From Marsupella aquatica (lineage: Eukaryota; Plantae; Marchantiophyta): 47,433 nucleotides of DNA. Both the position numbers and the translations under genes were made by a program. The notes below the pieces were generated by a model. The model ran no database searches, was not told the DNA's origin, and saw only the letters and a list, made by a program, of their open reading frames with translations. Location: positions 23,471,067 through 23,518,499 of the forward strand of contig OZ316896.1 of assembly GCA_973895155.1 (NCBI GenBank), in the 5' to 3' direction. Of the stretch, positions 8,570 to 42,750 are shown in pieces. The stretch's first letter is position 1; the number at the start of each line of letters is the position of its first letter.

Positions 8570-9090
8570 GGACAATCTCAGAGACCTCTCCAAGATTGAC
8601 CCCTTTTTTTAATCAATCTCGGAGGCCTCTTCGAGATTGACGTCCTATTTTGTGTCAATCTCAGAGGCCTCTCCAAGATTGGTCAACAAAGTCTCCAAGA
8701 ATTGTTGGAATCTCAAAGAGCCTCTTCGACATGGGATCAACACTGGGTTGGAATCTCAGAGAGCCTCTCCAAGATTGGTTCAAGACTCCATTCAAATCTC
8801 CGAGAGCCTCTCCAAGATGGGATCAACACTGGGTTGGAATCTCGGAGAGCCTGGTTCAAGACTCCATTTGAATCTCGGAGAGCCTCTCCAAGATGGGATC
8901 AACACTAGGTTGGAATCTCGGAGAGCCTCTCCAAGATGGGATCAACACTAGGTTGGAATCTCGGAGAGCCTCTCCAAGATGGGATCAACACTGGGTTGGA
9001 ATCTCAGAGCCTCTTCAAGATGGGATCAACACTGGGTTAGAATCTCGGAGAGCCTCTCCGAGATGGGATCAACATCATTTGGAATCTTGA
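8570..9090. repeat. 43-bp tandem array containing palindrome TCTCGGAGAG-C-CTCTCCAAGA
   Basis: GATGGGATCAACAC recurs at 8892, 8935, 8978 (period 43). Confidence 0.9.
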
Positions 9091-12954: not shown

Positions 12955-14489
12955 CTTCATAGTAGTCTTCAGGTCCCTCTTTAGCCTCATTTGAGATCTT
13001 AAACTTAAAAATTCTAAAATTTATGGCTAGTTAACCCTTCTTTCATAAACATCCTTATCTCACACTCATCAACTCGGATTTTGCACTCTCATCAATACGT
13101 TTCTTTGCATCTGGCGTCACAATTGATCTTCTTTGCCGTAAGCGGCCATTGCGACGGCTCAGCCTAACATCGGGCTTCAATGGATCCATCCGCTCTGGGT
13201 AACTATTCAAGTTCACAATTACATCACCGGGACTCACCATTGAATCACTAGGAATGATGGCCTGTACCACATTCAATCCATTGTCATGGAGAAAATCAAT
13301 TTCCTCTTGTGTTAGATAGGTTCCTCGAGCAATTGGGACCTTCTTCGGTAGTGGGGGCAGCCACCCAGTAACATATGCCATGAAGGATTTCTGGCAACAC
13401 TCGTTGTTTGGGCAAAACCAAAACTTTTGTGGAATGTTTGGATCCTTGTAACTGCTCCCAGCCAATAAGCACAATCCTACCACACCCAACGTTGCATGAT
13501 GAAATCCCACCTCCTTGATGTATAGACCGCATGTTGGACGTTCTATGCCTTTGAAGGCACCTCTACAAGCGGGACCACTTCCATGGTGACTGATGCGAGA
13601 CAAAAATAACATTTCTGGCATCACATTGCTCTCCTAAACTTATCTCTATTCGCCTCTATTATGCAAAGGTTCAGCAAACCGCATTGGTGGACAAACAGGG
13701 GGTGACCTTGGTATTGACCTTGTTGGGGTTGGAGGAGGTGGAACACGTGTTGCCCTTGTTGGGGGTGGAGGAGGAACACGGGTTGACTTCCTTGGGGTTG
13801 GTGGTGGAGGGACACATGTTGACCTTGTCGCACGCTGTGGTGAGCTCTCCAAAATCACCACATCTGATCCACTAGAGCCTGTAGGAGAGTCTGACAAGGT
13901 TGACAAACTGTCCACCACGTCGGGAATGGTACTTTTCAAGTTTGTATCTTGGCTTGAAATCCCCTTGAACTTCCGCTTCTTAGGTCGAGTTACTAGAATG
14001 ACATCATCGCAATGCATGGGAGTCTTCTACTATAATAGCATCAGCTAGAACCTTGCCTCGCACCGACATTTGTTGAGTTTCATAGTCACCAGGAATTGGG
14101 TCCCCCGAAGCATATTCAACCATCTCCGGTTGAGTCATCACTGTATTCAACTTTGGGAAGAAACTTTTAACATTCCCAACCATCTTGGCATCCAAAAGAC
14201 AAAGTTAAAAAAGGCTTGGGTCACGGCCCTTCCTCCCTTGGGTCGTGTAGTTGACAAGGGCACCAATTTGATTTGATGCACGGGTTGCATCCGTTATACA
14301 AGATTGCACTATTTCAATCTTGGTCGTGGAAGACCATCAGCGCATTGCGGCATGCACAGATTCTGCCCCGCTATGGTTCAACATCAATGCAGACTTAGTT
14401 CTGTCCATGTCCTACACAAAAATCAAAGAAAAGAGTATTATAAAAAATATGTACATGGCTCATCTTGTACAACATCTACAACATGTCCA

Positions 14490-14830
14490 ACGTGGTCCAT
14501 CCTGGAGAGGCTCTCCGAGATGACCCATGTGCTTACAAAAGTCGGAGAGGCTCTCTAACATGTCTAGTTTCTTGCTGGATATCTTTGAGATGACCTACGT
14601 GTTTCATCTTGGAGAGGTTCTCCGAGATGAACCATGTGTTTACAAAACAAGAGTTGTCTCTCAAACATGTTTACCTTCTCGCCCATTTGTTTCATCTTGG
14701 AGAGGCTCTCCGAGATGACCCACATCTTCCCTCTCGGAGAGGCTCTTTGAGATGACCCACATGTTCCATCTCAGAGAGGCTCTCTAACATGTCCAAGATG
14801 AATCTTCTCGAAGAGCCTCTCCAAGATGGA
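14490..14830. repeat. Intronic array of the palindromic motif CATCTTGGAGAGGCTCTCCGAGATG
   Basis: About 8 degenerate copies inside intron 14412-14856. Confidence 0.8.
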
Positions 14831-16944
14831 ATATTACTAAGAATTAATAAACTTACGAGCCGAATGAAGTTTCCCCATTGGGAGAACCGCACAATCCACC
14901 ACGAAAGCCATGTCTCGAGTGACTTGGTTTTTCCTTTGATTGCATTTCCATTTTTCCACCAATCCTTCATCTTCTCAAAAGTAAAAAATACAAGAACCAC
15001 ATTGGCAGCGTCCCTCAATGAATCCATAAGCTCCTTATGCTCAACTTGTTTGCCCTGGAAGAATGCATTTCTTTGTCATCTTCTCCACTGATTGTGCCTA
15101 GTGAAATGCATCAGATTGCTCCTTTTGAGAATTAACTCGACCGTCCCAAAATGTGTTTCGAACTGCATTCCACCCAACTGCAGCATTATCGGCAATAAAC
15201 CCGCAAAAGGTAACATTATCAAGCCCATTTGCCTTACACACTTGCTTCATGACCTTCCATGCAGTTTGCAGTGCAGCAGTATCTTCCAAAACTAGCTCGC
15301 ATACAAAAATTATGCACAGACCTCTGTATAGGTGCTCATATACATGAGCTGACATTGTGCACCATTGCTTCTTAGTCATTCGATGCATAACATCAAACAT
15401 CACCCATGAGTCTTGTAGATCTCCACCAGGCTGCATCCTTTGAATGAGATTGACTCCAGACCCTGGACCCTTTATAGTCATCTTGAAAATGTGTGGGCGC
15501 TCATCTGTATCTAGCTTCTGGTTTGGAAATAGAGTGCTATGGACAAATGAAAACGCTGTTTCTTTTTGAAGATCAAGGATGATTTGGAGGTCGAATGAGG
15601 CATGGGTATACTTGCGTATACTCTGTATCACAGATCTTACAAGTAATCAATCTGATAGGATCGCCAATGTTTCATTCAGATCCCGCGCTTCCTCAAATGT
15701 GACAATCCCAGCAACCTTGTCATCAAATATATCCCTTAGAGCTTTAATTGTGTCACTCTTGATCATAGACGATATTGCATTTGGATTCTTCTTCAATTTC
15801 TCCTCCATCAACTTATGTAAGAAAGCTTTCCGATCTTTCTTGAGAACAAATTTGGCCGGATGTGAGTGACTCCCAACATGCATAGCAACACGTGTCACGT
15901 GCTTGTAAATGTAATGGTCATGAGAGGTTGGAGTGATGTAGAACATTTTGGCTGGACACTTGGCTATACACTTAGGAGGCTGATCACAAAAGGCGCAAAT
16001 CATACTCTCTGCTGGAACTAGTTGCCCAACAAGAAATAAAACCTCATTTCTCCCACCCCTATCTCGCTACCATTATGTGGAATTGCGCTCATTGTTACTT
16101 GTAAATGCTGGACAATCTGAATGTTGACATTTCAAAGAGCCCAGGCATCTCACATTCCCAATCTTATACTTGAAGCCTCCCTTGTTCAGCTTAGGTCCAA
16201 TTTGGGCTCCTGTCTCGATGAGCTTGCTCCACAAATGGCAATCATTTTTCCGCTCCATACCCAAGAAGAAGGCACCCTTTGTGTGGATACCTGTGAATGG
16301 GGGGAGCTCAAAAATGCAATCTCCATCATACCATTCAGGTAGATTCATGACTTGTTGGGGATAATGCACTTTGAGAATGGTATGGGCAGCCTTTACACAT
16401 CGCGATGCGCCTTTCCCTTTCAACATTGCAACAACAACACTTTCAAGAAATTTGGCTTGCTCTACCTCTGCCGGCCACTCTGAAATCTTCTCTCCGTTTT
16501 GAGATTGCAAACAAACTTCAGTAAGAGGAACAGAGCACAGCTTCTGCTGAAGGACGTACAAAACTTCACTTTTCAGATGCCATATCCTTTCCTCTCCACT
16601 CTCCTTTGAGTTTGCCTCAATCAATGGTAAGATGTCGTTGGCCTCAAAGAGTGCCCACTCCCCAATCTCAACATCAAACCGACGAGCTAATTCGTTGTCT
16701 GGTGTATGCCAAACAACACCATCAGTCGCAAGCACAACAACGTCTCCATTGTCTGGAAACGTGATCCTCACACGGCCAGCCATGATAACCACTTGAAGAA
16801 AGACTAATGTTGAGCACCACGAGAGTTCAAGTGGCATCTACTGAGAGATTCCTCATTCATGTAAGGGATTTTATTGCCTTTCCGCGAACGTCAATTCAGT
16901 TTTGTTTCTCAAGACCGTAACTTAATCAGCAAACAGTATGTGAA

Positions 16945-17345
16945 AACTATTATTGATTCTTATGACTTTGTTTTGTCAGAGTACCTTATCGCCCAGACAA
17001 AGCGTAAAAATTGTTATTGACTCTTCTTTCTTTGTTGAATATGTCAAGATTGCTTTGTCAGAGTACCTTACCGCCCAGACAAAGTGTAAAAACTATTATT
17101 GACTCTTCTTTCTTTGTTGAATATTTCTGACTTTGTTTTGTCAGAGTACCTTACCGCCCAGTCCGAGCGTAAAATCTGTTATTGACTCTTCTTTCTTTGT
17201 TGAATATGTGAACATTGTTTTGTTAGAGTACCTTATTGTCCACACCGAGCGTAAAAATTGTTACAAATATTCTTCCCCCGTTTAATATGTAACAATCCTT
17301 CTTGACAACGTACCCTTGTGAGCGTGAAAACTGTTATTGACTATT
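16945..17345. repeat. About 82-bp tandem repeat, about 4.5 copies, upstream of the transposase start
   Basis: TGT(C/T)AGAGTACCTTA at 16974, 17056, 17139, 17221. Confidence 0.9.
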
Positions 17346-17399
17346 GACTTTGCGTCTAGGTAAAGCAAGTTTAGGGTGTCCATTAGGCCAACTGACAAG

Positions 17400-17687
17400 C
17401 CATCTTGCGCCAAAGTTCAGCGAGGACCATGTTAGAGAGGCTCTCCAAGATGCCATCTTGCACAGGTATGAAGCCCGGACCCATGTCAGAGAGGCTCTCT
17501 GGGATGCCATCTTGCGTAGGTATGAAGCCTCGACCCATGTTAGAGAGGCTCTCCGAGATGCCATCTTGCGTTGGAGTTCAGCAAACACCATGTTAGAGGG
17601 GCTCTCTGAGATGCCATCTTGCATAGGTATGAAGCCTCGACCCATGTTAGAGAGGCTCTCCGAGATGCCATCTTGCGCCGGAGTTCA
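17400..17687. repeat. 54-bp tandem array (left part) containing GAGAGGCTCTCCGAGATG
   Basis: CCATGT at 17427, 17481, 17535, 17588, 17642; the array resumes in register at 20283. Confidence 0.9.
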
Positions 17688-20282
17688 TGTCACCTGCTTA
17701 TCAAAATGATTTACACGACAAATATGTATTTCCTCCTACTAAAATTGTTTGTTATCGTATGACGGGAACGTGGAGGGACGCTATTAGGATTCTATTGCAT
17801 GTAGGATGAGTATGTTTATTTCCACTCCCGGAAATGTAATTTTTGATCAAGTCTACTGACTAGCCTCTCTGCTTTTGATCAAGTCCCATGGACTACACCA
17901 CACACACACTCCTATTGGTCGTTGGTGGAGTGCTGTCACCACCCCTCCTACTCACATGGTTGACCAAACCGTGCAAGGATTCCTTAGATACTTCTTGGGG
18001 AAATAACACAATCGTGAACCAGAAAAGGTAACGCCACACCAAAACTTGAGGAATCAAACCAAATCCATATCTTTTGGAAAAATGTCGTAACACATTGCAA
18101 GGACAACCCGGCCTCCTGCCGTCTCCCCAACTCCTGCCTCACTGGGGCAAGTGCTACACCTCTACCTCACTACTCTGGCTTGATTCCCTCTTCTGGCTAT
18201 GAACTAACTTTCCTAAAACCAACACTAGACTGAGTTCCCCCCTCACTACTCCGGGGCTCTTCTCTTAAATATTGAAAACAAACACACCAAAGCACCCCTC
18301 TAGGAGTCACAAAGATGGCGGCTACCCTAGCGGCGCCGCTAAAACCCTTCACAAAGAAATCTCTAACCTAAAACATGCGGCACACACATGCTCCTGAAAA
18401 CCCTAAACTAACTACGGGACCGTCGGTGCCAACCGTAATCATCCGTAGTCTCGGGGAAGTGAGGGGGCCACTCATGGTCGAAACCTCAAATATGTCCAAC
18501 TACTCCCCTGAGGGGAGCCCTGGATAGCTCTGCTCCTCCTGATCACGAATCCGTAAACGGCTCCGCAAACGGACTCCGGATGACCCAGTTATGGTCGTTT
18601 CAGTATCCCGTACCAACCAACTTCGCGGGGCCCTATCTTCCTCATTCTTGCTCCGTTTGAGGAGCGCCGCCTCTTGTTGGAATCAGCTCCGCGAGCTCTT
18701 TCCAACAAGCCCGTGAGTGCCCACTTCCCAAAAAATTTCAAAGTCAAGAGGTCGTACGACCAAGTCCGTACGGCCACCCTAGTCCTCCTCCTCCTCACTC
18801 ACGGTGCCATGGCTTGAGCCCCGTGAGTTGGTCTCCTCATCAGTCCTCCTCACTCACGGTGCCCTGGCTTGAGCCCTGTGAGTTGGTCTCCTCATCGCTC
18901 TCCATTGGAGTGGATACCACTCCGCTAAACAAGGACTCACTTGAGTCCACCACCTCCTATCCTATCTATCTACCCTGCCTACTAGCCTCAATCCTCCTGA
19001 TCGCCACCACCGGTCCATTGTAAAAGGAAGGGGCCCCTATAATTGTCGAAACTAAAATTTTCTCAGAATTCACTTCTGAAAACATATCTGAGGAGCCCTC
19101 CTCTTCCTGATCACGGCTCCGTAAACGGTGCGCAAAACGGAGGTCAAACGGCCAAGATATGATCGTTTAACTTTTCACGGGGCACTGTCTCCCTCCGTTT
19201 CGTCCGTACAACACCAGGGGGCCCCGGCTTTGCAAAACACGGTTTACGGTTTCCACATATGTGCTGCTATCTACGTACGGCCTCACAACCCCCGTATTCT
19301 CAAAAAACGAGATTTGTTGTATCTCCCCCGTCTTAGCTCCGTTTTGGCCGTGTGACACATCGTTGGATTCAGCTCGGCGAGCTCTTTCCAACAAGCCCAT
19401 AGACTCCTGATTTTGAGATGGTCGAAAATCTGATGTTCGTACAATCAGGGTCCGTACACACGTTGAAAGCAAGCACAAGAGGGAAAGGGTTTAGGGTTTA
19501 GGGTTTAGGTATGGGTGGAAACCCCACAAGTGAGAATAGAGAAAAATGGAAGGAAGAAAGTGTGAGGGCGCCTTGTACGAATATGTTCTTCTACGGAGTG
19601 CCCCTTCTACGGAGTGGTTCTTCTACGGAGTGGTTCTTCTACGGAGTGCCCCTCCACGGAGTGGGGAGGGAAAGAGAGCAAAAACCATGTGAATATCACA
19701 CAAAGGGTGAAGGGGAACACAAGTATGGGAGCCCCTTCCTTCTAAGGGCCCTCCCACCATCACTACTCCAAGATTGCCTAGTTTGTCGTTTTACGGGCGT
19801 TGAGGTCCCTCAAGATGTCACTGTTTGATATAGACCTAAAATCAACTAGAGAACCTCAGTTTCGCATGGGGCTCATTGAGGGCTTCAAAATGAATCCAAA
19901 CATGACCATGTTTGGAATAGTCTAGCACAGCAACGTCTATTTTAAGTTTCAATGTTTTTTATATTTTGGTCATTCTTCCCGTTTTGTGCCTAACGTGGAG
20001 CCTCCGACCAGCCCCCACCCCTCCAAGATGCCCACACCTTGGCTCCAAGTCCTTGGGCTGTCTTGTGGCCTCCTTGTACCCCCTCAATGGTTCCCTTGTC
20101 ATCCATCACCGCCCGACACCCCTCTCAACTCCGGCCTCTGGTTGTCGCATCCATTTATTAGAACTAACAAAAATAAAAAATTTGAAAATCCAAACACTTT
20201 TACTACACCTACTTGTCTTTCTACTTATATACGCAATTATAAGTCATCACTAAGTTACTATCGGGTTTGGGGCCCTGTCACA
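17688..20282. mobile_element. 2595-bp solo LTR (third family) with perfect 5-bp TSD
   Basis: TGTCAC...GTCACA termini; TSD GTTCA at 17683-17687 and 20283-20287; splits a 54-bp repeat unit; no convincing ORF. Confidence 0.85.
19486..19509 (+). repeat. Three plant telomere-type TTTAGGG units (telo-box-like)
   Basis: AGGGTTTAGGGTTTAGGGTTTAGG. Confidence 0.7.
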
Positions 20283-20600
20283 GTTCAGCAAACACCATGT
20301 TAGAGGGGCTCTCTGAGATCCCACCTTGCGCAGGTATGAAGCCTCGACCCATCTTAGAGAGGCTCTCCGAGATGCCATATTGCACCGGAGTTCAATAAAC
20401 ACCATGTTAGAGGGGCTCTTTGAGATGCCATCTTGCGCAGATATGAAGCCTCGACCCATGTTAGAGAGGCTCTCCGAGATGCCATCTTGCGCCGGAGTTC
20501 AGCAAACACCATGTTAGAGAGGCTCTCCGAGATGCCATCTTGCACCGGAGTTAAGCAAGGACCATGTTAGAGAGGCTCTCTGAGATACCATCTTCAGGTG
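20283..20600. repeat. 54-bp tandem array (right part)
   Basis: Same unit as 17400-17687, about 6 copies; further motif copies up to 20735. Confidence 0.9.
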
Positions 20601-20850
20601 TGTAGCAAGGATCAGGCTCAATATTTGTCAGAGAGCCAATTCAAAGTTATCACCAACACCTCCTGTCCTGATGTGTCATCTCGGAGAGGCTCTCCTAGGT
20701 CTGACCTTGTGTAATATGCCATTTTAGAGCCTCTCTGTGATGCCTAGACAGGAATCACTCGGCCGGTTAAGTGGGTAAAGCAGGAAGGCACCCTAGGAAC
20801 ACCTTAGTATAGTGACAAAACAAGGAAAATATAAACAATTAGGGGCAACC

Positions 20851-23800
20851 ATGGAACCCGGGCAGAGGCCGGAGGTAAGGCTGAGGGTGAAAACCCGATT
20901 AGGGTTAGGGCGCGTTAAGCGTCGGCGGCTAGGAAGGATCAACGGGAAGAAGGACCGGCAGAGGAGAGGGGTAAGGAGCGCTTGCAGGAGATGGTGGCTC
21001 ATTTGCGAGCACGAACTAGGCAGACGACTACGGGAGGCCAACTACTGTCAGCTGCTTAGGCAAGCACTCGGGGAGAGAGTAGATACCGACGATCAACCTA
21101 AGGAGGGTATGAGCAACGTCAATCAAGCGGCACATTTCTGGGGATGCCTGTTCGAACGGGCAACTGAGTACATCAAGACTTACGAGGACGAGGAGTCAGA
21201 AAGGGCAGCTCGAGAACGGCAGGAGCTCGCTCGATTGTGGGAGCTGCAGAAGACGGCTTTCTTAGGAGGCGAACTCATCAAGGACGAGTTCCTGTGGACG
21301 CCTACTTCCAATCAACTCGACGATCTTCTGTTTTGCAAGGACAGCGTCGTCGGCATCCGAGAGGCCATCAAGAACTGCAACGACATACACTGGGAATTAA
21401 AGGGTAGCACGGAAAGGTGGACCCAGGCAACGGTGCTAGGAGAAACCTCCACGGCAGCAGAGATGAAGAGGAAGGGAGCCGTCAACGATGAAGCCACCCC
21501 GGCAAAAAGAACGAGGTCGGCGGCACCAAAGAAGCCAGCCGAGCAGCAGAGCAGGAGGCAGGGAGAAGCCGAAGAGGAGGAGGTCGATCCCATCAAGGCC
21601 ATTCCAACCAGGGATGACACCTGGAAGGGCTGGGCGGCAACCCTACCGGTGGAGGTGCAACTACATTTTGCACGGGAGGAGGATGCATGCTTTACGGCCA
21701 TGCAGACCAAGAAGTACCAAGGCTTCATGGCCGGATCCGGCTTGGAGGCCTTTGTAAGATTACCATGGCTGAAGCCGGAGGTACCGGAGTCAGACCTATT
21801 AGAATTCGTGGGGTCATGGGAACCCGAGACCAATTGCACGAGGATATATGGGAAGGATTTCTATCTTACTCCCAAGGTGATTGCCGAAGTGTTTGGCTTG
21901 CCGATGGGCAATAAGACCAAAGTTGATACCAGGAAGACCTTGCCTGACAAGGAGTTCCGGTCGTTCCCCGGGCCATCAACGAAGAATGGCTTCTTCCGGA
22001 ACACCTGCACCAACCCGCACATAGGAGAGATGATCGACTTCTTGCGGGTGACCATGCATTGTAACTTGCCGAGGGCAGAGATCGGCAAGGCACAGGTCTA
22101 TCTGGCAGAAAGGCCAGACCCAAGCCGGGACTACAACGGGTACCTCCTCAACCAATTGAAGAAGATCTTAAAGGAGGAGCAGCAGGTAATTGGCATGGGG
22201 AGCGTGTCGCGGCTTGGCTATCACATGCCGCTGTTGTGCCGGTATGCCAGAGGTCAGACTTTTGCCCCGGTACTTCCCCTGCAGGTAAGGGCACCCGAGG
22301 AAGCTCCAACGCCGAGGCCGTTGGCTGAGAAGCCTCAACCACCTGTTAGTCCTACGATCGAGCAGGTGTTTAGGCCCAGGAAGGAAGACTTGCCGATGCA
22401 GCAACCAGGCATGCAGAGTCTGCTGAAACTACTGGAGAAAGAAAAGAAATCGGCATCGGCAACAACAACGGCAACGGCAACAATGCAGGACACTACTACA
22501 GAGGTAGGCCTACACCAGCTCACAAGAGAAAACCCCTTTGCTGGAGACAAGGAGAGAATCAGGCCGGAATCCAAGCCAGGTGTTCGAATGTACGTGGGAA
22601 CCTCAAGCTCCGAATCTGAGGCAGAATTGCCTGAAGCTCCTACCGAGGAAGAGGAGAGGGAGAAGCCGGAAATCCAAGAGGTAGAGGAGGCAGTGGAGGA
22701 CTGCAGCCATGATAATTCCGGCTATGGGTCGGACCATCACGTTCCAGGAGTAAGGACCTGTGGCCGGTTTGTCCCCACACTTCCAAGGGTAGTGCGAGGG
22801 GACCCCAACCAGCAGAGTAGCCCTGAGTCTCCCCCACCAGATGTTGCTCCCCCGAGCTTCGACGGCATAAAACAGACGGTGCAGGAATTTCAGGAGCGAA
22901 TCAAGCAGGAGGAAGAGGCCGCCCTGGCTAAGGAAAAGGATTTACCAGGAGGAGATTGGCCGGAGGACATCAGGCGGCTAGCCGAAAAAGGAAGCAAACC
23001 TCTAGCCACGATTGAAGAGATCCGCAGGACGGCTTGGGAGCAGAGGCCACGATGGGCGATGCCGATCACTTCTACTTACTCCACCTACGCTAAGAATAGA
23101 GCCATGGAGTATGGTGAGATGTGTGGGGAACTTGCGCTCGGCATCTTTGGAGAGGAGTTGGAGGTAGGACCCTTTTTCCATAGGGAGCAGTTGGAGAAGC
23201 ACCAATTAGAAGAAGCGGTGGCTTTAGAGAGAAGCAAGAAGGACGAGGTCATTCGGCGGCTTAGGAGGATGGGAGCCGAGATTGAAGATCTAAGGGCGGC
23301 CAAGAAAGCCCAAGATGAACTGCGGATTAAACGACATGAGCTGAACATCATGCAGGGGCAGTTGGACGCCGCGCAGGCTGATAATCAGAATATCAAGGAT
23401 AAACTGACTCAGACGCAGGAAGAGTTGGCCGACACGATCAAAGAAAGGGAAAAGTGGAAGCAAGAGCTGAAGAATACAGAGGAGGCCCACATAACAGCCA
23501 ACAGCCGGGCCATGGCGGAGACCCAAAGAAAGGAATGGGCGTTGAAAGGGGAGCTCGAGAAAATCCGCGGAGCCCTTGAGCAGAAGGAGGTCGAGTTAGG
23601 GAAATCCTATCAAGGGATTATGGCGCTGCAGCAGGAGCTTGCGTCCCTGACGGCCAGCTTCAAGGCCGACCTAAGGGAGAAGGACGAGATGCTCGAACAG
23701 ACTTACGCCAAGATGAACCAGATGGAGTCTGTCATCATTGCAGAGCTCGACAAGGAGCTAAGAGCAACCCAGGAGGAGAAGGCTACCTTGAAGAAGGAAT

Positions 23801-24474
23801 TGGAGGAAGCCCACAGGGAGCAGGAGGAGGCCAAAAACGAGCTGGAGGGGGCACGTAAGGACCTGGATGAAACCCAAGAGGAGTTGGAGGAAATCACGAG
23901 GAAGATGGAGAACCTACAGCGGCGGGCCGACAACCAAACAGAGCGGCTGAAGAAACAAGCCGCAGTATTTAAATGCTTAGCTGCAGCGGGTCCATCTCCT
24001 GTTGGGACAAACCAGTTACCAGGGGTGGTAATTGCCGAAGGACAAGCCGCGCCACCTGCACCAGTGCCGGAGGTAAGTGGGAAGGGGAAGGGACCAGCTG
24101 CCGAGCCACCAACGAAGAAGAAGCGGAAACCTTCAGGGTCAAGGAGTAATACGACTTCACAGGCCGTGGTGATCAAGGAGGTAGACCCAACACCGACCCC
24201 AGACAGGGTCACGGCTAGGGATCCAACTACCCTAGGGGAAGGGGAAGCCGAAGCCGTGAGAGTGGCTGAAGCCGAAGCCGTGAGAGTGGCTGAGGCCGAA
24301 GCCGTGGGTATTGCTGAGGCCGGTGTCGAGGCTGAAGCCGAAGGTGGACCCAGTCAGGCCGAGGGAGAGTTGACTCGGTCAAGGGCAGGTAATCTGTCAG
24401 TAGGCGGGCCAACGGCAGTGGCTGAGGAGGAAGTGTTGGGGGCGTCCATTGAGGATCCACCACCGGTGTCGTGA
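20851..24474 (+). CDS. Intact LTR-encoded protein, 1207 aa from the first ATG: plant-TE-type N-terminal domain, long coiled coil, NLS, acidic repeat tail; function unknown
   Basis: Open frame 20812..24474; ATG in GCAACCATGG context; E/K/Q/L heptad-rich region; PTKKKRKP; no clear transmembrane segment. Confidence 0.85.
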   Translation: MEPGQRPEVRLRVKTRLGLGRVKRRRLGRINGKKDRQRRGVRSACRRWWLICEHELGRRLREANYCQLLRQALGERVDTDDQPKEGMSNVNQAAHFWGCLFERATEYIKTYEDEESERAARERQELARLWELQKTAFLGGELIKDEFLWTPTSNQLDDLLFCKDSVVGIREAIKNCNDIHWELKGSTERWTQATVLGETSTAAEMKRKGAVNDEATPAKRTRSAAPKKPAEQQSRRQGEAEEEEVDPIKAIPTRDDTWKGWAATLPVEVQLHFAREEDACFTAMQTKKYQGFMAGSGLEAFVRLPWLKPEVPESDLLEFVGSWEPETNCTRIYGKDFYLTPKVIAEVFGLPMGNKTKVDTRKTLPDKEFRSFPGPSTKNGFFRNTCTNPHIGEMIDFLRVTMHCNLPRAEIGKAQVYLAERPDPSRDYNGYLLNQLKKILKEEQQVIGMGSVSRLGYHMPLLCRYARGQTFAPVLPLQVRAPEEAPTPRPLAEKPQPPVSPTIEQVFRPRKEDLPMQQPGMQSLLKLLEKEKKSASATTTATATMQDTTTEVGLHQLTRENPFAGDKERIRPESKPGVRMYVGTSSSESEAELPEAPTEEEEREKPEIQEVEEAVEDCSHDNSGYGSDHHVPGVRTCGRFVPTLPRVVRGDPNQQSSPESPPPDVAPPSFDGIKQTVQEFQERIKQEEEAALAKEKDLPGGDWPEDIRRLAEKGSKPLATIEEIRRTAWEQRPRWAMPITSTYSTYAKNRAMEYGEMCGELALGIFGEELEVGPFFHREQLEKHQLEEAVALERSKKDEVIRRLRRMGAEIEDLRAAKKAQDELRIKRHELNIMQGQLDAAQADNQNIKDKLTQTQEELADTIKEREKWKQELKNTEEAHITANSRAMAETQRKEWALKGELEKIRGALEQKEVELGKSYQGIMALQQELASLTASFKADLREKDEMLEQTYAKMNQMESVIIAELDKELRATQEEKATLKKELEEAHREQEEAKNELEGARKDLDETQEELEEITRKMENLQRRADNQTERLKKQAAVFKCLAAAGPSPVGTNQLPGVVIAEGQAAPPAPVPEVSGKGKGPAAEPPTKKKRKPSGSRSNTTSQAVVIKEVDPTPTPDRVTARDPTTLGEGEAEAVRVAEAEAVRVAEAEAVGIAEAGVEAEAEGGPSQAEGELTRSRAGNLSVGGPTAVAEEEVLGASIEDPPPVS

Positions 24475-24494
24475 CGGTGCAAGGGCGCCGTTCC

Positions 24495-24515
24495 TTTTAG
24501 GGAGGGCGGACGTGG
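24495..24515 (+). other. Internal relic PPT and putative ancestral LTR start (TTTT-AGGGAGGGCGGA-CGTGG)
   Basis: T-run plus purine tract about 20 nt after the ORF stop; CGTGG is one change from TGTGG, the inverse of the terminal CCACA; present in every copy that spans this point, including the relic. Confidence 0.55.
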
Positions 24516-24963
24516 AGGGAGGAGGCGTGAGTGGGCAGGGCGGGCACGGATCTCCACGTTTAGGATTAGGATCAGAACCAGGAGCGGCCCTGACACTTAG
24601 CTTAGTGGGATTGCGGTCCCACTGGTAGGAGCAACACTTGTGCTCCTGCCTTGCTGTACATAGGTAGATTCGGGCAAGTAGATTACTGTTAAGTAGATTA
24701 GGCTTACGATGCAAAGAATGGCGGATCCACTACCAGGATAAGTACCTGGGCAGCGGGGAGCTCAGGGCCTCTTCTTTAGCAAGTTTTTAGTTTGCACCAG
24801 CCGGGCTGGGATCAAGTAGTACGAGAAGCTCTCGGTTAGTCATACAGTGACCCTTGTGTATATTCATGTTTCCTCATGCCTAAGAGCTGAATAGAGTTGG
24901 CCTCACGGCTTAGTTCGCAGAACTTGTGTATGAGATGTACTGTTTGTATGGCAAGTGCATGGT

Positions 24964-24986
24964 ATGACTCAGTCAGAATGAGTCAT
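24964..24986 (+). promoter_or_regulatory. Inverted pair of GCN4/AP-1-type motifs (ATGACTCA-N7-TGAGTCAT) in the LTR
   Basis: Seen directly; present in the young LTR copies, degenerate in the relic. Confidence 0.4.
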
Positions 24987-25189
24987 TTTGCTATTTGTGT
25001 GTCGCATTAACTTGTGTGAAGAGTGCCCACATCAACAGAAGGAAGGAAAGTAAGCAGGGGAGTGAGAGTTGGATGTGTCGAGCTGAGAGAGGTCTTAGCG
25101 GCTTAACCAAGCCTATTGGGGATCATTCCGGCGGCGGAATCCAAACATACCTAACAAGACGGAGGGGAAGACAGGGGAAGACAGGGGAA

Positions 25190-25204
25190 GGCCTATATTA
25201 GGCC
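25190..25204 (+). promoter_or_regulatory. Putative LTR TATA box (GGCC-TATATTA-GGCC)
   Basis: TATA-like motif about 200 bp before the LTR end, after GA-rich repeats. Confidence 0.4.
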
Positions 25205-25394
25205 GGCTACGTATCTCATGACCCGATGAAGGATCTGTCCAGTATATGTGTGTAAAATGTTAATAGTAGTAGTAGAAGGTTAGCAGCGTCCCATGCCGCT
25301 AAGCCGCGGAAACGGCCTCGCCAAGCGTGAAACCGCGGGAATCGGCTTGAGCTGGGGGGTTTCTTGGGTTTAGGGAGCCATGGGACGCACCACA

Positions 25395-26422
25395 GTAATC
25401 TTACAAAGGCCTCCAAGCCGGATCCGGCCATGAAGCCTTGGTACTTCTTGGTCTGCATGGCCGTAAAGCATGCATCCTCCTCCCGTGCAAAATGTAGTTG
25501 CACCTCCACCGGTAGGGTTGCCGCCCAGCCCTTCCAGGTGTCATCCCTGGTTGGAATGGCCTTGATGGGATCGACCTCCTCCTCTTCGGCTTCTCCCTGC
25601 CTCCTGCTCTGCTGCTCGGCTGGCTTCTTTGGTGCCGCCGACCTCGTTCTTTTTGCCGGGGTGGCTTCATCGTTGACGGCTCCCTTCCTCTTCATCTCTG
25701 CTGCCGTGGAGGTTTCTCCTAGCACCGTTGCCTGGGTCCACCTTTCCGTGCTACCCTTTAATTCCCAGTGTATGTCGTTGCAGTTCTTGATGGCCTCTCG
25801 GATGCCGACGACGCTGTCTTTGCAAAACAGAAGATCGTCGAGTTGATTGGAAGTAGGCGTCCACAGGAACTCGTCCTTGATGAGTTCGCCTCCTAAGAAA
25901 GCCGTCTTCTGCAGCTCCCACAATCGAGCGAGCTCCTGCCGTTCTCGAGCTGCCCTTTCTGACTCCTCGTCCTCGTAAGTCTTGATGTACTCAGTTGCCC
26001 GTTCGAACAGGCATCCCCAGAAATGTGCCGCTTGATTGACGTTGCTCATACCCTCCTTAGGTTGATCGTCGGTATCTACTCTCTCCCCGAGTGCTTGCCT
26101 AAGCAGCTGACAGTAGTTGGCCTCCCGTAGTCGTCTGCCTAGTTCGTGCTCGCAAATGAGCCACCATCTCCTGCAAGCGCTCCTTACCCCTCTCCTCTGC
26201 CGGTCCTTCTTCCCGTTGATCCTTCCTAGCCGCCGACGCTTAACGCGCCCTAACCCTAATCGGGTTTTCACCCTCAGCCTTACCTCCGGCCTCTGCCCGG
26301 GTTCCATGGTTGCCCCTAATTGTTTATATTTTCCTTGTTTTGTCACTATACTAAGGTGTTCCTAGGGTGCCTTCCTGCTTTACCCACTTAACCGGCCGAG
26401 TGATTCCTGTCTAGGCATCACA
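25395..26422 (-). mobile_element. 3' LTR of left unit, first 1028 bp only, with the 5' part of the LTR ORF (ATG at 26307)
   Basis: Inverted match to 20736-21763. Confidence 0.9.
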
Positions 26423-26437
26423 TAGCTCCCCACTTAA
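26423..26437 (-). other. Polypurine tract TTAAGTGGGGAGCTA directly before TGTGATG
   Basis: Purine-rich run abutting the LTR TG end; absent before the flank-joined copies at 4916 and 20736. Confidence 0.75.
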
Positions 26438-29400
26438 TTGTGAAGCGTCCTCGCAAACAACTTCATCTTCGTCCATATAGTATTTCTTGAGGCGGTCATA
26501 ATGGATGCGAACTGGATATACCTCTCCCGTAATGTTGGCCAATTGCACGGAGCCATTGGGGAACATCATGGTTACTCTAAAGGGTCCTAACCAGCGAGTG
26601 TAAAGCTTTCCTGGAAACCTACTATACCTACTGTCATAAAGTAGCACAAGATCACCGGTATGAATACTAACTACTTTTAACCTTTTATCATACTGCTGCT
26701 TCATGATATTCTGTCTATATTCTACTCTCTCGGCTGAAATCATTCTCGCTTCCTCTAAAGCTTCTAACCTATATTCTCGCTCCTTTAGGCTCTCCTCCGC
26801 TGAGGCTCTTTCCTCAATTGTAACTTGAAATGTCGGTATCTCAAGTTGCGTGGGTACCAGGGCTTCTTGTCCAAAGGTTAAGAAGAAGGGTGTATGACCG
26901 GTAGTGGATTTATAGGCCAGATTGTAAGCAAAAACAGCAGCAAACAATTTATCATCCCAATCGAGTTTGTTCTGAGCTACTGTCTTGTTCAATATCTTTC
27001 CTATGATTCCGTTTGCTCGTTCTGTCAACCCGTTTGCCTTTGGATGGTAGGGAGTAGTAGGCCTATGTTTAACTAAATACTGCTCATTTAAACGACTAAT
27101 TATATCATTCAAAAAATGGGTTCCTCTATCACTAACTAATTCTAGGGGTGCTCCATACCTGGTGAAGATCTGCTCATACATGAATCTAGCCGTAGTAATT
27201 GCATCATCCTTCGTTGTTGGTCTGGCCTCTACCCATTTAGTTGCATAATCCGTAGCCAGGATTATGTACTTGTTCCGTCGAGGGTGGGTCAGTGGTTTCA
27301 GAGGTCCAATGTAATCAATACCCCACTTCTCGAATGGTGCCAGAGGTAGAATAGGGTGCAGTGGATGCCTGGTGGACGCCCTTGGTCCGCCCGCTCGTTG
27401 ACAAGGATCGCATTGTTTGATAAACTGATAGACATCTTTGTGCAAGGTGGGCCACCAGTAACCGGCATTTAATATCTTCTTAGACGTGGTTACTGGGGCA
27501 AAATGTCCTCCGGCCTCCTCTCCATGCATGGCCCGTAGGACTCGTTTTACCTCTCTCTTCTCCAAACACCTTTGAATCGTGCCGTTGATTCCATGCTTGT
27601 GCAGTATGCCTTTAATGCACTGATACTGTCTGACCTTCCGCACAAAGACTGTGGCTTGCTCTCGGCTTAATCCTGGCTGTAATCTGGAAGTGCTGAGAAA
27701 TTGTAAAATCTCAGGGTACCATGTACCAGCTATTTCCACAACGAATAGCTCCTCGTCGGGGAATCGATCATCGATGCAATCCGTGGCAGGTTTACCTGTG
27801 ATCCTTGAAAAGAAGTCGGCATTGGCATGTAACTTTCCTGGCTTGATCCTCAGCTCATAGTCAAACTCCTGTAATAGCAAAATCCATCTTGCTACTCTGC
27901 CTGTAAGGTCCGGCTTATTGACTAGGTACTTCAAACTTTCATGATCAGTATGAAAGATTACCTTGTACCCTAGTAAATAATGCCTAAACTTTTTACAAGA
28001 ATAAATGACTCCTAATGCTTCTCTTTCCGTGGTAGAGTAGTTCCGTTCGGCATCGGCAAGCTGACGGCTTGCGAAGTATATGGGATGGTCCCTTCCTTTC
28101 TCATCCAACTGACTTAGTACTGAGCCAATACAGAAGCCCGAGACATCTACAAAAACATGAAAATCTTTGTTCCAGTCCGGTGCTATCATGACTGGGGCCT
28201 CTACTAACATCTGCTTCAATTCTACCACCGCTGTGACTCGTTCGGGTGTGGGTTCGAAGTCTGCTCCTGCCTTGAGCATGTTGGTTAATGGTAAAGCTAG
28301 CTTGGCAAAATCCTTGATGAACCGGCGATAGTAACCAATGCATCCCAAGAAGGATCTTACATCCTTTATGTTCTTAGGTTGCATGATATCTAGCCATACT
28401 GCTAGCTTACCTTTGTCAATCTCAATGCCCTTCCTTGATACCTTGTGACCTAGTAGCACCCCCTCGGTTACTGCAAAAAAACATTTATCTGGGTGTAACT
28501 TGAGACCCACCTCCCTACATCTCATGAAGGTTTTCCTGAGGTATTTAGCATGTTTCGATGCCTTCCCGAATACTGCAAAGTCATCAATGAAGATTTCCAT
28601 GAACTTTCTCAAGTAATCATGAAAAATGTTCACCATTAATCGTTGGAACATAGCTGGTGCGTTGCAGAGTCCAAACGGCATACGATTGAAGACATAGATC
28701 CCCCATTCCGTGATGAAGGCCGTCTTGATTTGGTCTTCCTGCCGAATCCTGATTTGGTTATAACCAGAGTATCCATCCATGAATGAATATAGTTCATGAC
28801 TGGCTACCATGTCTAGTACCATATCAGTAACGGTAAAGGAAAATGGTCTTTTAATGTTGCTTCATTCAGCTTCCTGTAATCCTGACAAACCCGGATCTTG
28901 GGTTTACCATCGGGTCCAGCTTTCTTGGGAACTATCACAATTGGAGACACCCAGTCTGAATGCAGGACTGGAGTGATGAATCCAGCTTCCACTAGTTTGT
29001 CGATTTCTGTTTTGACCAGCAGGGAATACTTCGGGTTCATCCTTCGAATTGGTTGTCGAAATGATTTGGCTCCTAACATGAGATCAATTCGATGTTCCCC
29101 TAGTGTTGGATCTACGCCCTTTAGATCTTGGTGACTCCATGCAAACACATCCTGAAATTCAATCAATAAGTCACTGATCTCTTTCTCGAGCTCAGGTGCT
29201 AGGTTTCTCCCTAAGTTCAGTTCTCTTCCCTCTCCTAAGTCGAGCTTCCGATATTGCCGTGCTTGGATCATATTAATCTGCTTCTTCAAATTCGGGTCCA
29301 GTTCGGCTTCCAGTCTCTCTAATCTCATACCTCCATAAACTGGGATCTCGGCTGGACTAGCCGAGTCGGTCCCTTCCTTGGTGTCCATAGATTGTCCCCT

Positions 29401-29582
29401 TACCGGTCTATTCGGTTTTGAATTAGTGGTCGGCTCCCCTTCCTGCCTTGGCTCTGGATCGTGTCTGTTCATCTCATCCACCTCTTGCTCCTGAGAGTTA
29501 GGCCGCTGTGCTCTCTCGGCTTCTAATAGGGCCTCAATTTGTTCTGCCCTCGTAATCGGCTTGTATGCCGATCCCTTGGTAT

Positions 29583-31976
29583 TTAATTCCTTGCCGATGA
29601 TCGATGGCGTTGTGGACCCCGTCGGCTCTGCCACAACGCCTGCAGAAAATCCACTGTCCCTGCTACTGCTCCCCACTTAGCCGTTTCATCCAATTGGTCT
29701 ACATCCTTAACTTCCTCCGGAATTGCAGCTAAAAAGGTGGATTCTATTGTAAAGCAGTCCTCGACCTCTTCGTCTTCTTTTTCCAAGTCACCTTCCATTG
29801 GTTCTTGCCATAATCCGCTGGGGGGTACCTCTGGTCCAAAGACACCTTCTTCGGTTAGGTTAGTGAAGCATTCTAACCAACGTACCCATCTACTTCCCTT
29901 ATGCTTTTCCTACGGTCATCCTTAGTGTCCCAGGATACCGTGATAGAGGGGGTCCCGAAAGTGAACTGCTTTTTACCCCAATCTTCTATTACCTCGGCTA
30001 GGTACAGCCATGGCCTACCAATCAATAGCCGGAATGACGTAGGATTTACCGGCTTCATTACTACATAGTTAATGCTAAAGAAGATACCTCCTATCTCTGT
30101 CTTGATGCCGGTTAACACTCCCGTAGGAATGACCTGATATCCATTGGCCATGTTCAACACTCTTCCAGTCATCTCCGGTGTTAGACCCCACCCTTTTGCT
30201 GTTGAATCAATCATAATACATACCCCTGATCCTCCATCGATGGGTACCCGTAGTAATAATTCTCCTTGAATCATTAATGGTAATGCTGGGGCTCCTTGAT
30301 CTTCTTCTATCATTAGTACGTCGGATCTGGTTGCTACCTTGGGTAATCTCGGCTTGCCGAGAATAGCCTTCCTTAATTGCTTCCGGAAGTACGGGCTATT
30401 TTTCAATAGTTGACCTACTGTTGCCGAGACTCTAGATTCTAGTACATCTTTAGCCAGGTCATAGGGAACAATCGGCTTCTCTTCTGGTGGTGTTTCCGTC
30501 TTGGATTCGGCCAGTTTTGCCACGCTAGTCTCCACAGCTGTTGGGTCTTCCGAAGCAAACAATGCTTTTGCTCGTTTTACATCCTTGGCAATGGCTTCGG
30601 TATTCTCCAGGGTTTCTAATTCTCTTAGTTGTTCCTTAACACTAGCCGTAACAGAGGGGTAGAATAACTTAGGATGATCTCGATTGAAGTCGCTATCTTG
30701 TGAAGGATTGGTTTCACTGGTGGGCTCATGGCTTACCTGTATTGCCGGAGCCCTCCCTTCTCCTTCTGTTGATGTTGACGAAGAGTCGATCCTTTCCTCC
30801 GTAACCTTCCCTTTATTTTTGGCCAGCCCATCCCACCTTTCCTTCCTTCTGGTAGATCGAGTAGAGACCCGGTAGCAATCATGATCTAAATCCTCCTCTG
30901 AGAAGGTTGATAGGGCTTCGGCCTCATCATCAGATGGTACGAACTCTGCCTCGGCATCCTCTTGCCATCCTAGTTCGATGTGGTTGATTTGAACTCCTCC
31001 GGGGGTAGTACCTGGCGGTAAGATCTTGATCGGCAAAAGCTTATGATTTGCGGCCAGGCCTGCCAACCAAGTAGGACATTGCCCTAGCATATGACCTTCC
31101 TGTCGGCATCCCATACATAGCTGAGCTGGTTGTCCATCACCCTGTTTGCGTGCATTCGGGCATTCTCTAACAAAATGGCCAGGTTGACCACAATTATAGC
31201 ACGCCGCAAATCTTTGCACATTCGGCCTAGGAGGTACTGACGGGTTCTGAATAATCCGAGGATACATCTCTCCTGGATTGTTCCTTAACCCTGACCACAG
31301 AGATGCAGGTCTGTTGGATAGGTCTCGTGCTCCAGTCTCACTGATGCCGAAAACACTATCAGCGGCATCTCCCAAAAAGTACTCTACTTCTCCCTGACAT
31401 GGTCAGTTTCTGAAAGCGTTGCAAGAACTTCCTGAAGGATTTGTTCTCCTTGAACCGAAGTTGTCCCAACTTCAGCACTGCTAGTTCTGAAGTTCCAATG
31501 GGTCGAAACTCCTTAACAAAGAGTGTTTTGAAGATATCCCAGATGGCTTGATCTTCCACATCTAATGCTCTGTACCAAGGCCTAGCCTCACCCTTGAACA
31601 GGCCGGGAAGAATCTGCATCTTGATGGCCGATTCTCCATTTGCTGCAGCGGTTCCCTCGAAATCATCCAACCATTCGTCCGGATCCTCATCTCCTCTCCC
31701 ATGAAATGCCTTGTAATGTATGCGCGACCGCTGGCTCAATCTGGTCCCTGGCCTCTCGTCTGGCCGTGCCTCTGGTTCCCCCATGTCGGTTGGAGACTCA
31801 CTTCTCCTTACCGACTCTTCTTCTGGTATGTCTTCTTCGACGCCACTTCCAGTTTCGGAGCTACCAGCTCTTTCTGCCCCTCTCAGTCGCTGTGTATCAT
31901 GCCACCCGGCGAGCTGCTGCAGTCGAGCTCTCTCCTGTTGAATCACTCTTTCTTCCCTCGGCGTAAGGTCAGTCAT
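29583..31976 (-). pseudogene. gag: Gag-protease, left unit; 569-bp and 31-bp deletions
   Basis: Versus 39692-42685: junction at 31404/31405 lacks 41545-42113; 31 bp lost between CGTAC direct repeats near 29881. Confidence 0.9.
29593..29652 (-). promoter_or_regulatory. -1 ribosomal frameshift cassette (G_GAU_UUU + stem/pseudoknot), left unit
   Basis: Heptamer at 29646-29652 in gag phase, 5-nt spacer, stem GGCGUUGUGG/CCACAACGCC, loop GCCGA can pair with downstream UCGGC. Confidence 0.8.
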
Positions 31977-32023
31977 TACCTACGCTTCCGTTCTAACTTC
32001 ATATCTCACGGCTTAAGAAATGC

Positions 32024-32041
32024 CCCCTCCATCTAGCGCCA
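32024..32041 (-). other. Primer-binding site TGGCGCTAGATGGAGGGG (tRNA-Asn type)
   Basis: 4 T after the LTR CA end; about 17/18 match to the complement of plant tRNA-Asn(GUU) 3' end as I recall it. Confidence 0.8.
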
Positions 32042-32045
32042 AAAA

Positions 32046-35000
32046 TGTGGTGCGTCCCATGGCTCCCTAAACCCAAGAAACCCCCCAGCTCAAGCCGATT
32101 CCCGCAGGTTTCGTGCTTGGCGAGGCCGTTTCCACGGCTTAGCGGCATGGGACGCTGCTAACCTTCTACTACTACTATTAACATTTTACACACATATACT
32201 GGACAGATCCTTCATCGGGTCATGAGATACGTAGCCGGCCTAATATAGGCCTTCCCCTGTCTTCCCCTGTCTTCCCCTCCGTCTTGTTAGGTATGTTTGG
32301 ATTCCGCCGCCGGAATGATCCCCAATAGGCTTGGTTAAGCCGCTAAGACCTCTCTCAGCTCGACACATCCAACTCTCACTCCCCTGCTTACTTTCCTTCC
32401 TTCTGTTGATGTGGGCACTCTTCACACAAGTTAATGCGACACACAAATAGCAAAATGACTCATTCTGACTGAGTCATACCATGCACTTGCCATACAAACA
32501 GTACATCTCATACACAAGTTCTGCGAACTAAGCCGTGAGGCCAACTCTATTCAGCTCTTAGGCATGAGGAAACATGAATATACACAAGGGTCACTGTATG
32601 ACTAACCGAGAGCTTCTCGTACTACTTGATCCCAGCCCGGCTGGTGCAAACTAAAAACTTGCTAAAGAAGAGGCCCTGAGCTCCCCGCTGCCCAGGTACT
32701 TATCCTGGTAGTGGATCCGCCATTCTTTGCATCGTAAGCCTAATCTACTTAACAGTAATCTACTTGCCCGAATCTACCTATGTACAGCAAGGCAGGAGCA
32801 CAAGTGTTGCTCCTACCAGTGGGACCGCAATCCCACTAAGCTAAGTGTCAGGGCCGCTCCTGGTTCTGATCCTAATCCTAAACGTGGAGATCCGTGCCCG
32901 CCCTGCCCACTCACGCCTCCTCCCTCCACGTCCGCCCTCCCTAAAAGGAACGGCGCCCTTGCACCGTCACGACACCGGTGGTGGATCCTCAATGGACGCC
33001 CCCAACACTTCCTCCTCAGCCACTGCCGTTGGCCCGCCTACTGACAGATTACCTGCCCTTGACCGAGTCAACTCTCCCTCGGCCTGACTGGGTCCACCTT
33101 CGGCTTCAGCCTCGACACCGGCCTCAGCAATACCCACGGCTTCGGCCTCAGCCACTCTCACGGCTTCGGCTTCAGCCACTCTCACGGCTTCGGCTTCCCC
33201 TTCCCCTAGGGTAGTTGGATCCCTAGCCGTGACCCTGTCTGGGGTCGGTGTTGGGTCTACCTCCTTGATCACCACGGCCTGTGAAGTCGTATTACTCCTT
33301 GACCCTGAAGGTTTCCGCTTCTTCTTCGTTGGTGGCTCGGCAGCTGGTCCCTTCCCCTTCCCACTTACCTCCGGCACTGGTGCAGGTGGCGCGGCTTGTC
33401 CTTCGGCAATTACCACCCCTGGTAACTGGTTTGTCCCAACAGGAGATGGACCCGCTGCAGCTAAGCATTTAAATACTGCGGCTTGTTTCTTCAGCCGCTC
33501 TGTTTGGTTGTCGGCCCGCCGCTGTAGGTTCTCCATCTTCCTCGTGATTTCCTCCAACTCCTCTTGGGTTTCATCCAGGTCCTTACGTGCCCCCTCCAGC
33601 TCGTTTTTGGCCTCCTCCTGCTCCCTGTGGGCTTCCTCCAATTCCTTCTTCAAGGTAGCCTTCTCCTCCTGGGTTGCTCTTAGCTCCTTGTCGAGCTCTG
33701 CAATGATGACAGACTCCATCTGGTTCATCTTGGCGTAAGTCTGTTCGAGCATCTCGTCCTTCTCCCTTAGGTCGGCCTTGAAGCTGGCCGTCAGGGACGC
33801 AAGCTCCTGCTGCAGCGCCATAATCCCTTGATAGGATTTCCCTAACTCGACCTCCTTCTGCTCAAGGGCTCCGCGGATTTTCTCGAGCTCCCCTTTCAAC
33901 GCCCATTCCTTTCTTTGGGTCTCCGCCATGGCCCGGCTGTTGGCTGTTATGTGGGCCTCCTCTGTATTCTTCAGCTCTTGCTTCCACTTTTCCCTTTCTT
34001 TGATCGTGTCGGCCAACTCTTCCTGTGTCTGAGTCAGTTTATCCTTGATATTCTGATTATCAGCCTGCGCGGCGTCCAACTGCCCCTGCATGATGTTCAG
34101 CTCATGTCGTTTAATCCGCAGTTCATCTTGGGCTTTCTTGGCCGCCCTTAGATCTTCAATCTCGGCTCCCATCCTCCTAAGCCGCCGAATGACCTCGTCC
34201 TTCTTGCTTCTCTCTAAAGCCACCGCTTCTTCTAATTGGTGCTTCTCCAACTGTTCCCTATGGAAAAAGGGTCCTACCTCCAACTCCTCTCCAAAGATGC
34301 CGAGCGCAAGTTCCCCACACATCTCACCATACTCCATGGCTCTATTCTTAGCGTAGGTGGAGTAAGTAGAAGTGATCGGCATCGCCCATCGTGGCCTCTG
34401 CTCCCAAGCCGTCCTGCGGATCTCTTCAATCGTGGCTAGAGGCTTGCTTCCTTTTTCGGCTAGCCGCCTGATGTCCTCCGGCCAATCTCCTCCTGGTAAA
34501 TCCTTTTCCTTAGCCAGGGCGGCCTCTTCCTCCTGCTTGATTCGCTCCTGAAATTCCTGCACCGTCTGTTTTATGCCGTCGAAGCTCGGGGGAGCAACAT
34601 CTGGTGGGGGAGACTCAGGGCTACTCTGCTAGTTGGGGTCCCCTCGCACTACCCTTGGAAGTGTGGGGACAAACCGGCCACAGGTCCTTACTCCTGGAAC
34701 GTGATGGTCCGACCCATAGCCGGAATTATCATGGCTGCAGTCCTCCACTGCCTCCTCTACCTCTTGGATTTCCGGCTTCTCCCTCTCCTCTTCCTCGGTA
34801 GGAGCTTCAGGCAATTCTGCCTCAGATTCGGAGCTTGAGGTTCCCACGTACATTCGAACACCTGGCTTGGATTCCGGCCTGATTCTCTCCTTGTCTCCAG
34901 CAAAGGGGTTTTCTCTTGTGAGCCGGTGTCGGCCTACCTCTGTAGTAGTGTCCTGCATTGTTGCCGTTGCCGTTGTTGTTGCCGATGCCGATTTCTTTTC

Positions 35001-36705: not shown

Positions 36706-36720
36706 TAGCTCCCCACTTAA
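36706..36720 (-). other. Polypurine tract of right unit
   Basis: TTAAGTGGGGAGCTA abutting TGTGATG. Confidence 0.75.
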
Positions 36721-42685: not shown

Positions 42686-42732
42686 TACCTACGCTTCCGT
42701 TCTAACTTCATATCTCACGGCTTAAGAAATGC

Positions 42733-42750
42733 CCCCTCCATCTAGCGCCA
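42733..42750 (-). other. Primer-binding site (tRNA-Asn type), right unit
   Basis: Identical to 32024-32041. Confidence 0.8.

Follow-up and report, generated by a model that had tools for sequence, protein, structure and literature searches.

How an ORF of 1,225 codons came to lie wholly within an LTR is the question raised by this window, the 47,433-nt stretch of the Marsupella aquatica genome analyzed here. We consider it probable that the 21-mer TTTTAGGGAGGGCGGACGTGG (24495-24515, +), a degenerate PPT with a pseudo-terminus, is the disabled remnant of the old 3' PPT and LTR start of an Athila-like Ty3/gypsy element, the boundary having moved ~3.8 kb upstream to the PPT module at the end of pol and thereby placed the lineage's own ORF in a 4.66-kb LTR. 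Four observations underlie this explanation: the family now starts its LTR at the pol end, PPT-like tracts flank a homologous ORF on either side in relatives, relatives using the downstream tract have a short LTR, and the 21-mer has the position and profile of the downstream boundary but carries CG and an interrupted G-run.

Self-comparison of the window resolved a single young family, present as several copies in nested and tandem arrangement. The giant LTR, delimited by self-comparison and junctions, occupies 4,659 bp at 20736-25394 (+; TGTGATGC...GCACCACA) and shows 17 differences from the copy at 32046-36705 (-), which is common to two tandem internal regions. Its start, TGTGATG, abuts unrelated non-element flanks at 20736 and 4916 and also stands directly behind the pol-end purine tract at 36705 and 26422. 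The 5' end is therefore fixed independently of the internal region, so that the 4,659-bp LTR is real and begins, in the present family, at the upstream boundary, as a sequence-only reading of the window had supposed; the 0.88-kb piece in the tandem array, considered as the real LTR, was ruled out by the same two non-element junctions. Further copies lie at 42755-47159 (-), with the 5' part replaced by an inversion at 47160; at 1191-4916 (-), where the 5' end at 4916 marks insertion into a relic and the copy is cut at the equivalent of 24485; and at 1-1190 (+), the 3' part of another LTR. The relic itself, ~75% identical, comprises an LTR 3' part at 5666-6703 (+) and a further piece at 4916-5066. 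Among five junctions no matching flank pair was found that would mark a target-site duplication, the copies being nested and rearranged.

Members of the family have inserted three times, in opposite orientation, into LTRs like their own (1190/1191, 25394/25395, and 4916/4917), one of these self-insertions landing 10 bp upstream of the 21-mer site, and more self-joints of the LTR family occur in public contigs of the sequencing runs. A fold-back inversion at 47159/47160 (46978-47433), a gag deletion at 31404, and a local duplication at 28532-28813 are either real rearrangements or assembly artefacts.

The internal regions encode gag, a zinc knuckle, RT, RNase H, and integrase at 36694-42688 (-), broken by frame changes, and again at 26411-31979 (-), where gag carries a deletion and there is a local duplication. 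Beyond the LTR 3' end at 32046 and 42755 come four T and then the primer binding site TGGCGCTAGA (32032-32041, -; second copy 42741-42750), and the working PPT module lies at the pol end, at 36706-36741 (-) directly before the LTR start at 36705 and in a second copy at 26423-26458 (-) before the start at 26422. The element thus has TG...CA LTR ends, a primer binding site behind the 5' LTR and a PPT ahead of the 3' LTR, and the Ty3/gypsy order of gag followed by RT, RNase H, and integrase. Pfam detected neither a chromodomain nor an extra (archaeal-type) RNase H. Pol ends ~20 residues past the integrase C-terminal motif. The pol-end module can also be recognized, as a VREDAH-like ending of pol, in seven further proteins (P0004, P0007, P0011, P0014, P0020, P0031, and P0041). 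The nearest named proteins are from Calypogeia, Riccia, and Marchantia, which makes a bryophyte-grade plant the likely host; the trees contain no named REXdb references.

The extra ORF runs in sense orientation within the LTR from 20797 to 24474 (+), 1,225 codons counted stop to stop, with in-frame ATG codons at 20851 and 21109. The only TATA[AT]A match on the LTR sense strand (20830-20835, +) precedes both and hints at a promoter for the ORF at the 5' end of the LTR, judging from the motif. A TATA-like box lies ~95 bp inside the LTR start in the window family and also in the relative L002 (~93 bp after its position 6148); none was found in the corresponding stretch of L004, L005, or L006.

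The relatives come from one metagenome scan, which returned 460, of which 80 were kept; an integrase end is present in 44 of the 80, and six of these, 50-57% identical, are the close relatives (L001-L006). They are known from metagenome contigs that are collapsed or partial and show neither paired LTRs nor target-site duplications, and only three of the six reach beyond the ORF (L003, L005, and L006). Viral contigs and prokaryote genomes held no related loci.

Each of the six close relatives has a long sense ORF behind pol, five matching one profile strongly and L001 weakly. The N-terminal domain of the window ORF is homologous to these post-pol ORFs (profile-profile probability 97.5%, E 7e-12, 169 columns), and its C-terminal half is coiled-coil-like. 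Identity to the relatives' ORFs is ~20%, the closest by pairwise search being that of L006 (22%). The ORF is therefore the lineage's own extra gene, and the gene capture of the sequence-only reading is not supported if a foreign gene is meant. One relative's ORF matched Pfam Transposase_32 weakly and under the cut-off. No match to ORF residues 100-520 came from a word-based search of 6,095 candidate proteins, and a full-library protein search returned 23 proteins matching the ORF, listed without genomic context. Elsewhere in the window, two adjacent ORFs of another element (10465-12285, -; 309 and 296 codons with one stop between) were observed, the first of which aligns with the extra-ORF family of L002-L005; no pol or LTR was identified nearby.

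The same relatives show where LTR boundaries can fall. L005, a collapsed whole element, reads pol, a PPT without TG, the ORF, a PPT followed by TGTGATG, a 990-bp LTR, and the primer binding site. L006 has a PPT with TG on both sides of the ORF, and L003 has no second module in the 218 bp past its ORF. In the more distant L025, L028, L030, and L039 (37-39% identity in integrase), pol is followed by a homologous or equivalent ORF and then by a PPT with TG. An ancestor ordered pol, extra ORF, PPT, and short LTR had been proposed from the window alone, and L005, L006, L025, L028, L030, and L039 support it, with an LTR of roughly 1 kb. The view that the pol-end PPT was new does not hold, as a G-rich PPT-like tract ends 14-89 bp from the pol stop in all six close relatives, ORF-internal L005 and L006 included; TG follows it in five, AG in L005. 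In L002 the pol-end start is an exact 8/8 inverse of the LTR 3' end, which suggests that L002 too carries its ORF in the LTR.

The pol-end tract common to the sister families L004 (2300-2333) and L005 (3740-3778) is followed by TG in the former and AG in the latter, possibly a recent toggle; the L004 contig ends inside the ORF.

The 21-mer lies where these layouts place a downstream boundary. It consists of a U-tract (24495-24498), a purine-rich part (24499-24510), and CGTGG (24511-24515), the TTTT...CGTGG arrangement already described just past the ORF stop; it starts 21 bp past the TGA, and its boundary at 24511 is 37 bp past the stop, compared with distances of 124 (L005), 66 (L006), 59 (L025), 41 (L028), and 30 bp (L030) in the relatives. 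A search allowing up to three mismatches found five matches in the window, at 24495 (+), 32926-32946 (-), 43635-43655 (-), 291-311 (+, two mismatches inside the purine run), and 5827-5847, the relic copy that the earlier reading had also seen (one mismatch, with CG). These five belong to one family and are not independent; CG stands at the boundary in every one (four young copies and the relic), TG was looked for at this exact site and occurs in 0/5, and no insertion junction begins at the boundary in any of them. In public contigs from four runs no loose end at 24511 was present among 24 of 1,731 listed, and the true start at 20736 appeared as one in a single piece only. The site pattern with C or T allowed had no match in the viral contigs or prokaryote genomes, collections without any relative.

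CGTGG, the near-inverse of terminal CCACA, is by itself chance-level: the LTR has 24 occurrences of xGTGG, and the match to the inverted LTR 3' end is 5/8 bases at the 21-mer against 7/8 at the real 5' end. The site is identical to the relic at 20 of 21 positions in an alignment that is 75.7% identical overall, and 9.3% of 21-column windows in that alignment are equally conserved. Retention of CG in the relic was considered as a special feature and rejected, 22 of 41 CpG being kept between LTR and relic. The relic's ORF end lies upstream of its site, so that the relic is silent on which boundary it used.

Resemblance to a PPT was assessed with matrices built from the relatives' PPT/LTR starts (4-9 sequences, boundaries placed by eye, L028 and L030 being near copies). 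L003, whose tract is a near copy of that of L002, was left out of the matrices; L073 and L079, which have paired 0.63-kb LTRs, are degenerate, and lack an integrase end, were left out of both matrices and trees. The site ranks 1-3 of ~4,630 LTR positions in six of eight settings, and 53 and 58 in the two shortest (last 14 nt only); the true pol-end PPT, as a control, ranks 1-3 of ~10,690 positions. Leaving out one element at a time gave ranks of 1-4 in 23 of 24 runs and 24 in the other, a further 12 settings gave 1-4 in 11, and the relic site ranks 1-2 of ~1,000 in 12/12. When only the four distant post-ORF PPTs make up the matrix, the best boundary falls exactly at 24511 (rank 1 of 4,640) and the relic site ranks 1 of 1,019. 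The scores are weaker than those of the true PPT under 10 of 12 matrices, or equal to lower overall, and weak over the core 14 nt. Local dinucleotide shuffles reach the site's score in 0.4-17.6% of trials (at most 5% in eight of 12 settings, above 5% in four). By pairwise alignment two of nine relative tracts, both from L005, match the LTR best at the site and seven do not, and 8 and 12 of 200 shuffles score as high as these two.

The non-coding LTR has no nucleotide homology to any relative, and orthology of the site therefore rests on position and motif. The site occupies the expected position of the boundary, and the relatives' matrices score it as a PPT/LTR start, as the sequence-only reading would have it; we regard this as moderate evidence, consistent with a 21-mer that resembles the lineage's PPT module.

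A second PPT-like match at 24540-24574 resembles the L006 post-ORF tract. Although the match ending at 24574 is top in four of eight matrix settings, it was rejected as a candidate because the sequence is less conserved in the relic and no TG follows.

The same bases sit in a G-rich island (24487-24547, +), whose six GGG runs span 46 nt. The boundary shift could then be real and the 21-mer not its remnant; it might be a G-rich 3'UTR or promoter element, possibly a G-quadruplex, resembling a PPT since both are G-rich behind a run of T. From the sequence we judge this unlikely. It would suit the six clustered runs, the G4Hunter-like score of 1.6 (fourth highest in the LTR) and of 1.96 at the same place in the relic (highest there), the continuation of the conserved island past the supposed boundary to ~24547, and the frequency of xGTGG in the LTR; enrichment of plant LTRs in quadruplex motifs is described in the accessible part of PMC5838962. 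A strict quadruplex pattern (loops up to 12 nt) matches the relic and not the young copy, and diverged subfamilies in public contigs (runs X1, X2, and X3) break off on both sides of the island, at 24487 and 24547 among the ends listed. A G-rich element does not account for local-composition shuffles reaching the site's score in at most 5% of trials in eight of 12 settings, for independent distant PPTs that set the boundary exactly at 24511, or for a distance from the ORF stop that agrees with the relatives; moreover, the three LTR windows with higher G4 scores are absent among the top PPT-matrix matches listed.

The origin of the module now in use bears on another possibility. The window's working pol-end module shares 87% identity over 45 nt with the L005 module behind the ORF, and its nearest counterparts are the post-ORF modules of L005 and L006 rather than their pol-end tracts; a module of its type lies at the pol end in L001, L002, and L003. 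A template switch could have joined the pol, PPT, and LTR start of an ORF-less or other element to the ORF, PPT, and LTR 3' end of a second one, leaving the site as the donor's PPT, and an ORF only ~20% identical to its counterparts would agree with that. We hold such recombination to be very unlikely, given that a long post-pol ORF is present in 6/6 close relatives, that pol-end tracts already occur in relatives with an internal ORF, and that the 80 loci kept yielded no close relative lacking the ORF.

In the boundary shift that we favor, a pre-existing pol-end tract would have acquired the canonical module and TG, by duplication or conversion, or kept them, while the downstream tract decayed. 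On the standard model of reverse transcription, where the LTR begins depends on which primer gives rise to the transferred strong-stop DNA, and integrase requires TG at that point. Under that model short-LTR and giant-LTR forms would be made from the same genomic RNA, and the two layouts would differ only in which plus-strand primer gives the transferred strong-stop DNA with a TG end. The downstream primer, copying only 0.88 kb, should win strand transfer and leave a CG terminus, which integrase would not be expected to join. Since as the winning primer it would produce unintegrable ends, we predict that the old tract has fallen largely silent. Far-upstream primers are described in the accessible text of PMC2829016 as losing kinetically to the downstream PPT, and spare PPTs there as lacking an attachment site. 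It follows that, for the shift to occur, the downstream tract would have had to give up both priming and TG, in agreement with the interrupted G-run and contrary to a live second primer.

Such a live primer, selected to speed plus-strand synthesis over the long U3 while CG blocks integration of short products, has in our estimate little probability. The 20/21 identity with a 75% relic and the clean, unused tract without TG in L005 would favor it, as would extra PPTs reported in Athila4/Calypso, Sireviruses, Ty1, and HIV-1 (PMC2829016, in its available passages) and in EVADE (PMC7197481, likewise). These known extra tracts, however, lie upstream of the used one, whereas a downstream primer should win the transfer, at the expense of genomes; the G-run is also interrupted and in one young copy carries two changes. 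The suggestion of the sequence-only reading that the old tract may still prime is accordingly doubtful on mechanistic grounds.

Direction and age were read from trees. In a careful 790-column tree, from which L025 and L023 were dropped for broken frames, the group that includes the window has L006 as its sister (100/99), with L028, L030, and L039 further out, which makes an internal ORF the parsimonious ancestral state. A single origin of the upstream boundary has support of 95 in a quick integrase tree against 68/67 in the careful one. The upstream shift seems to be common to L002 and L003 and may therefore be old. This tells against a remnant, since a shift of the age implied by 53% pol identity should have left time for a neutral fossil to vanish; the 21-mer may have been retained for a second role, as a G-quadruplex or 3'UTR element. 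The gain from the shift would be a copy of the ORF in both LTRs and in every solo LTR.

A broader reading, which we put forward tentatively and do not expect to hold in full, is that a PPT module stands on each side of the extra gene across a whole bryophyte-type gypsy clade, so that the LTR start toggles by a few base changes with the genomic RNA unaltered, producing gene-carrying multi-kilobase LTRs in one step and more than once, the unused module being kept by selection in either state. If this were true, solo LTRs would be self-contained expression cassettes.

Among known systems, Athila4, Calypso, and Bagy2 likewise combine a pol lacking a chromodomain with an extra sense ORF after it, and Athila-type elements have an extra PPT in the 3' linker (PMC2829016 and PMC7264820, as far as their accessible text goes). 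The Athila type is defined by an extra ORF between pol and the 3' PPT; here the used PPT is at the pol end, the ORF lies downstream of it and wholly inside the LTR, and the spare tract follows further downstream in the LTR. Phygy and moss Tat-like elements resemble the window element as bryophyte-type non-chromoviruses without an extra RNase H, with pol taking up the internal region as far as the PPT (available parts of PMC6317226 and PMC4408406). Phygy is described, in the accessible text of PMC6317226, as 7.7-10 kb long, without an extra ORF and with an NCGN target preference, a description that sets the present element apart, with an expected span of ~15.4 kb, its ORF in the LTR, and junction flanks without a CG core. 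The multiple PPTs of Sireviruses and the central PPTs of Ty1, HIV-1, and EVADE are, in the available text of the sources given above for them, also spare PPTs without a correct attachment site, lying upstream of the used PPT and well conserved, in contrast to the downstream and degenerate tract of the window.

In the available portions of the literature, the extra ORFs of plant elements lie within the internal region and spare PPTs precede the used one (PMC6317226, PMC7264820, PMC2829016, PMC7197481, PMC1142308, PMC4408406, PMC5838962, PMC3485330, and PMC12885004); LTRs of up to ~5 kb are noted in non-chromoviruses with no cause given in those portions. No description of a PPT shift bringing an ORF into an LTR was found in the literature searched, which lay mostly outside subscription journals. 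The growth of LTRs to several kilobases and the whole genes inside them are usually described rather than explained. A whole protein gene in a retroviral LTR is known from sag of MMTV, a short ORF. The window element differs from this case in its 1,225-codon ORF, its relatives in which the ORF is still internal, as in the ancestor, and a candidate old boundary that can still be seen. With both states in living relatives and that candidate in view, a route through the plus-strand primer and attachment site becomes testable. Surveys for extra ORFs confined to the internal region will miss those in bryophyte LTRs, which multiply with every solo LTR.

The rest of the window includes broken transposase-like ORFs at 13055-16837 (-), three of which were scanned with no Pfam match at E 0.01; they sit between GGAGAGGCTCTCCGAGAT-type repeat arrays (~8660-9090, 14460-14830, 16960-17690, and 20280-20600). 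Public contigs matching 20500-25394 number 15,910 in run X1 and 28,557 in run X2, many at 80-95% identity. The LTR family is very abundant in organisms A and B, where it forms diverged subfamilies; A>G and G>A differences dominate.
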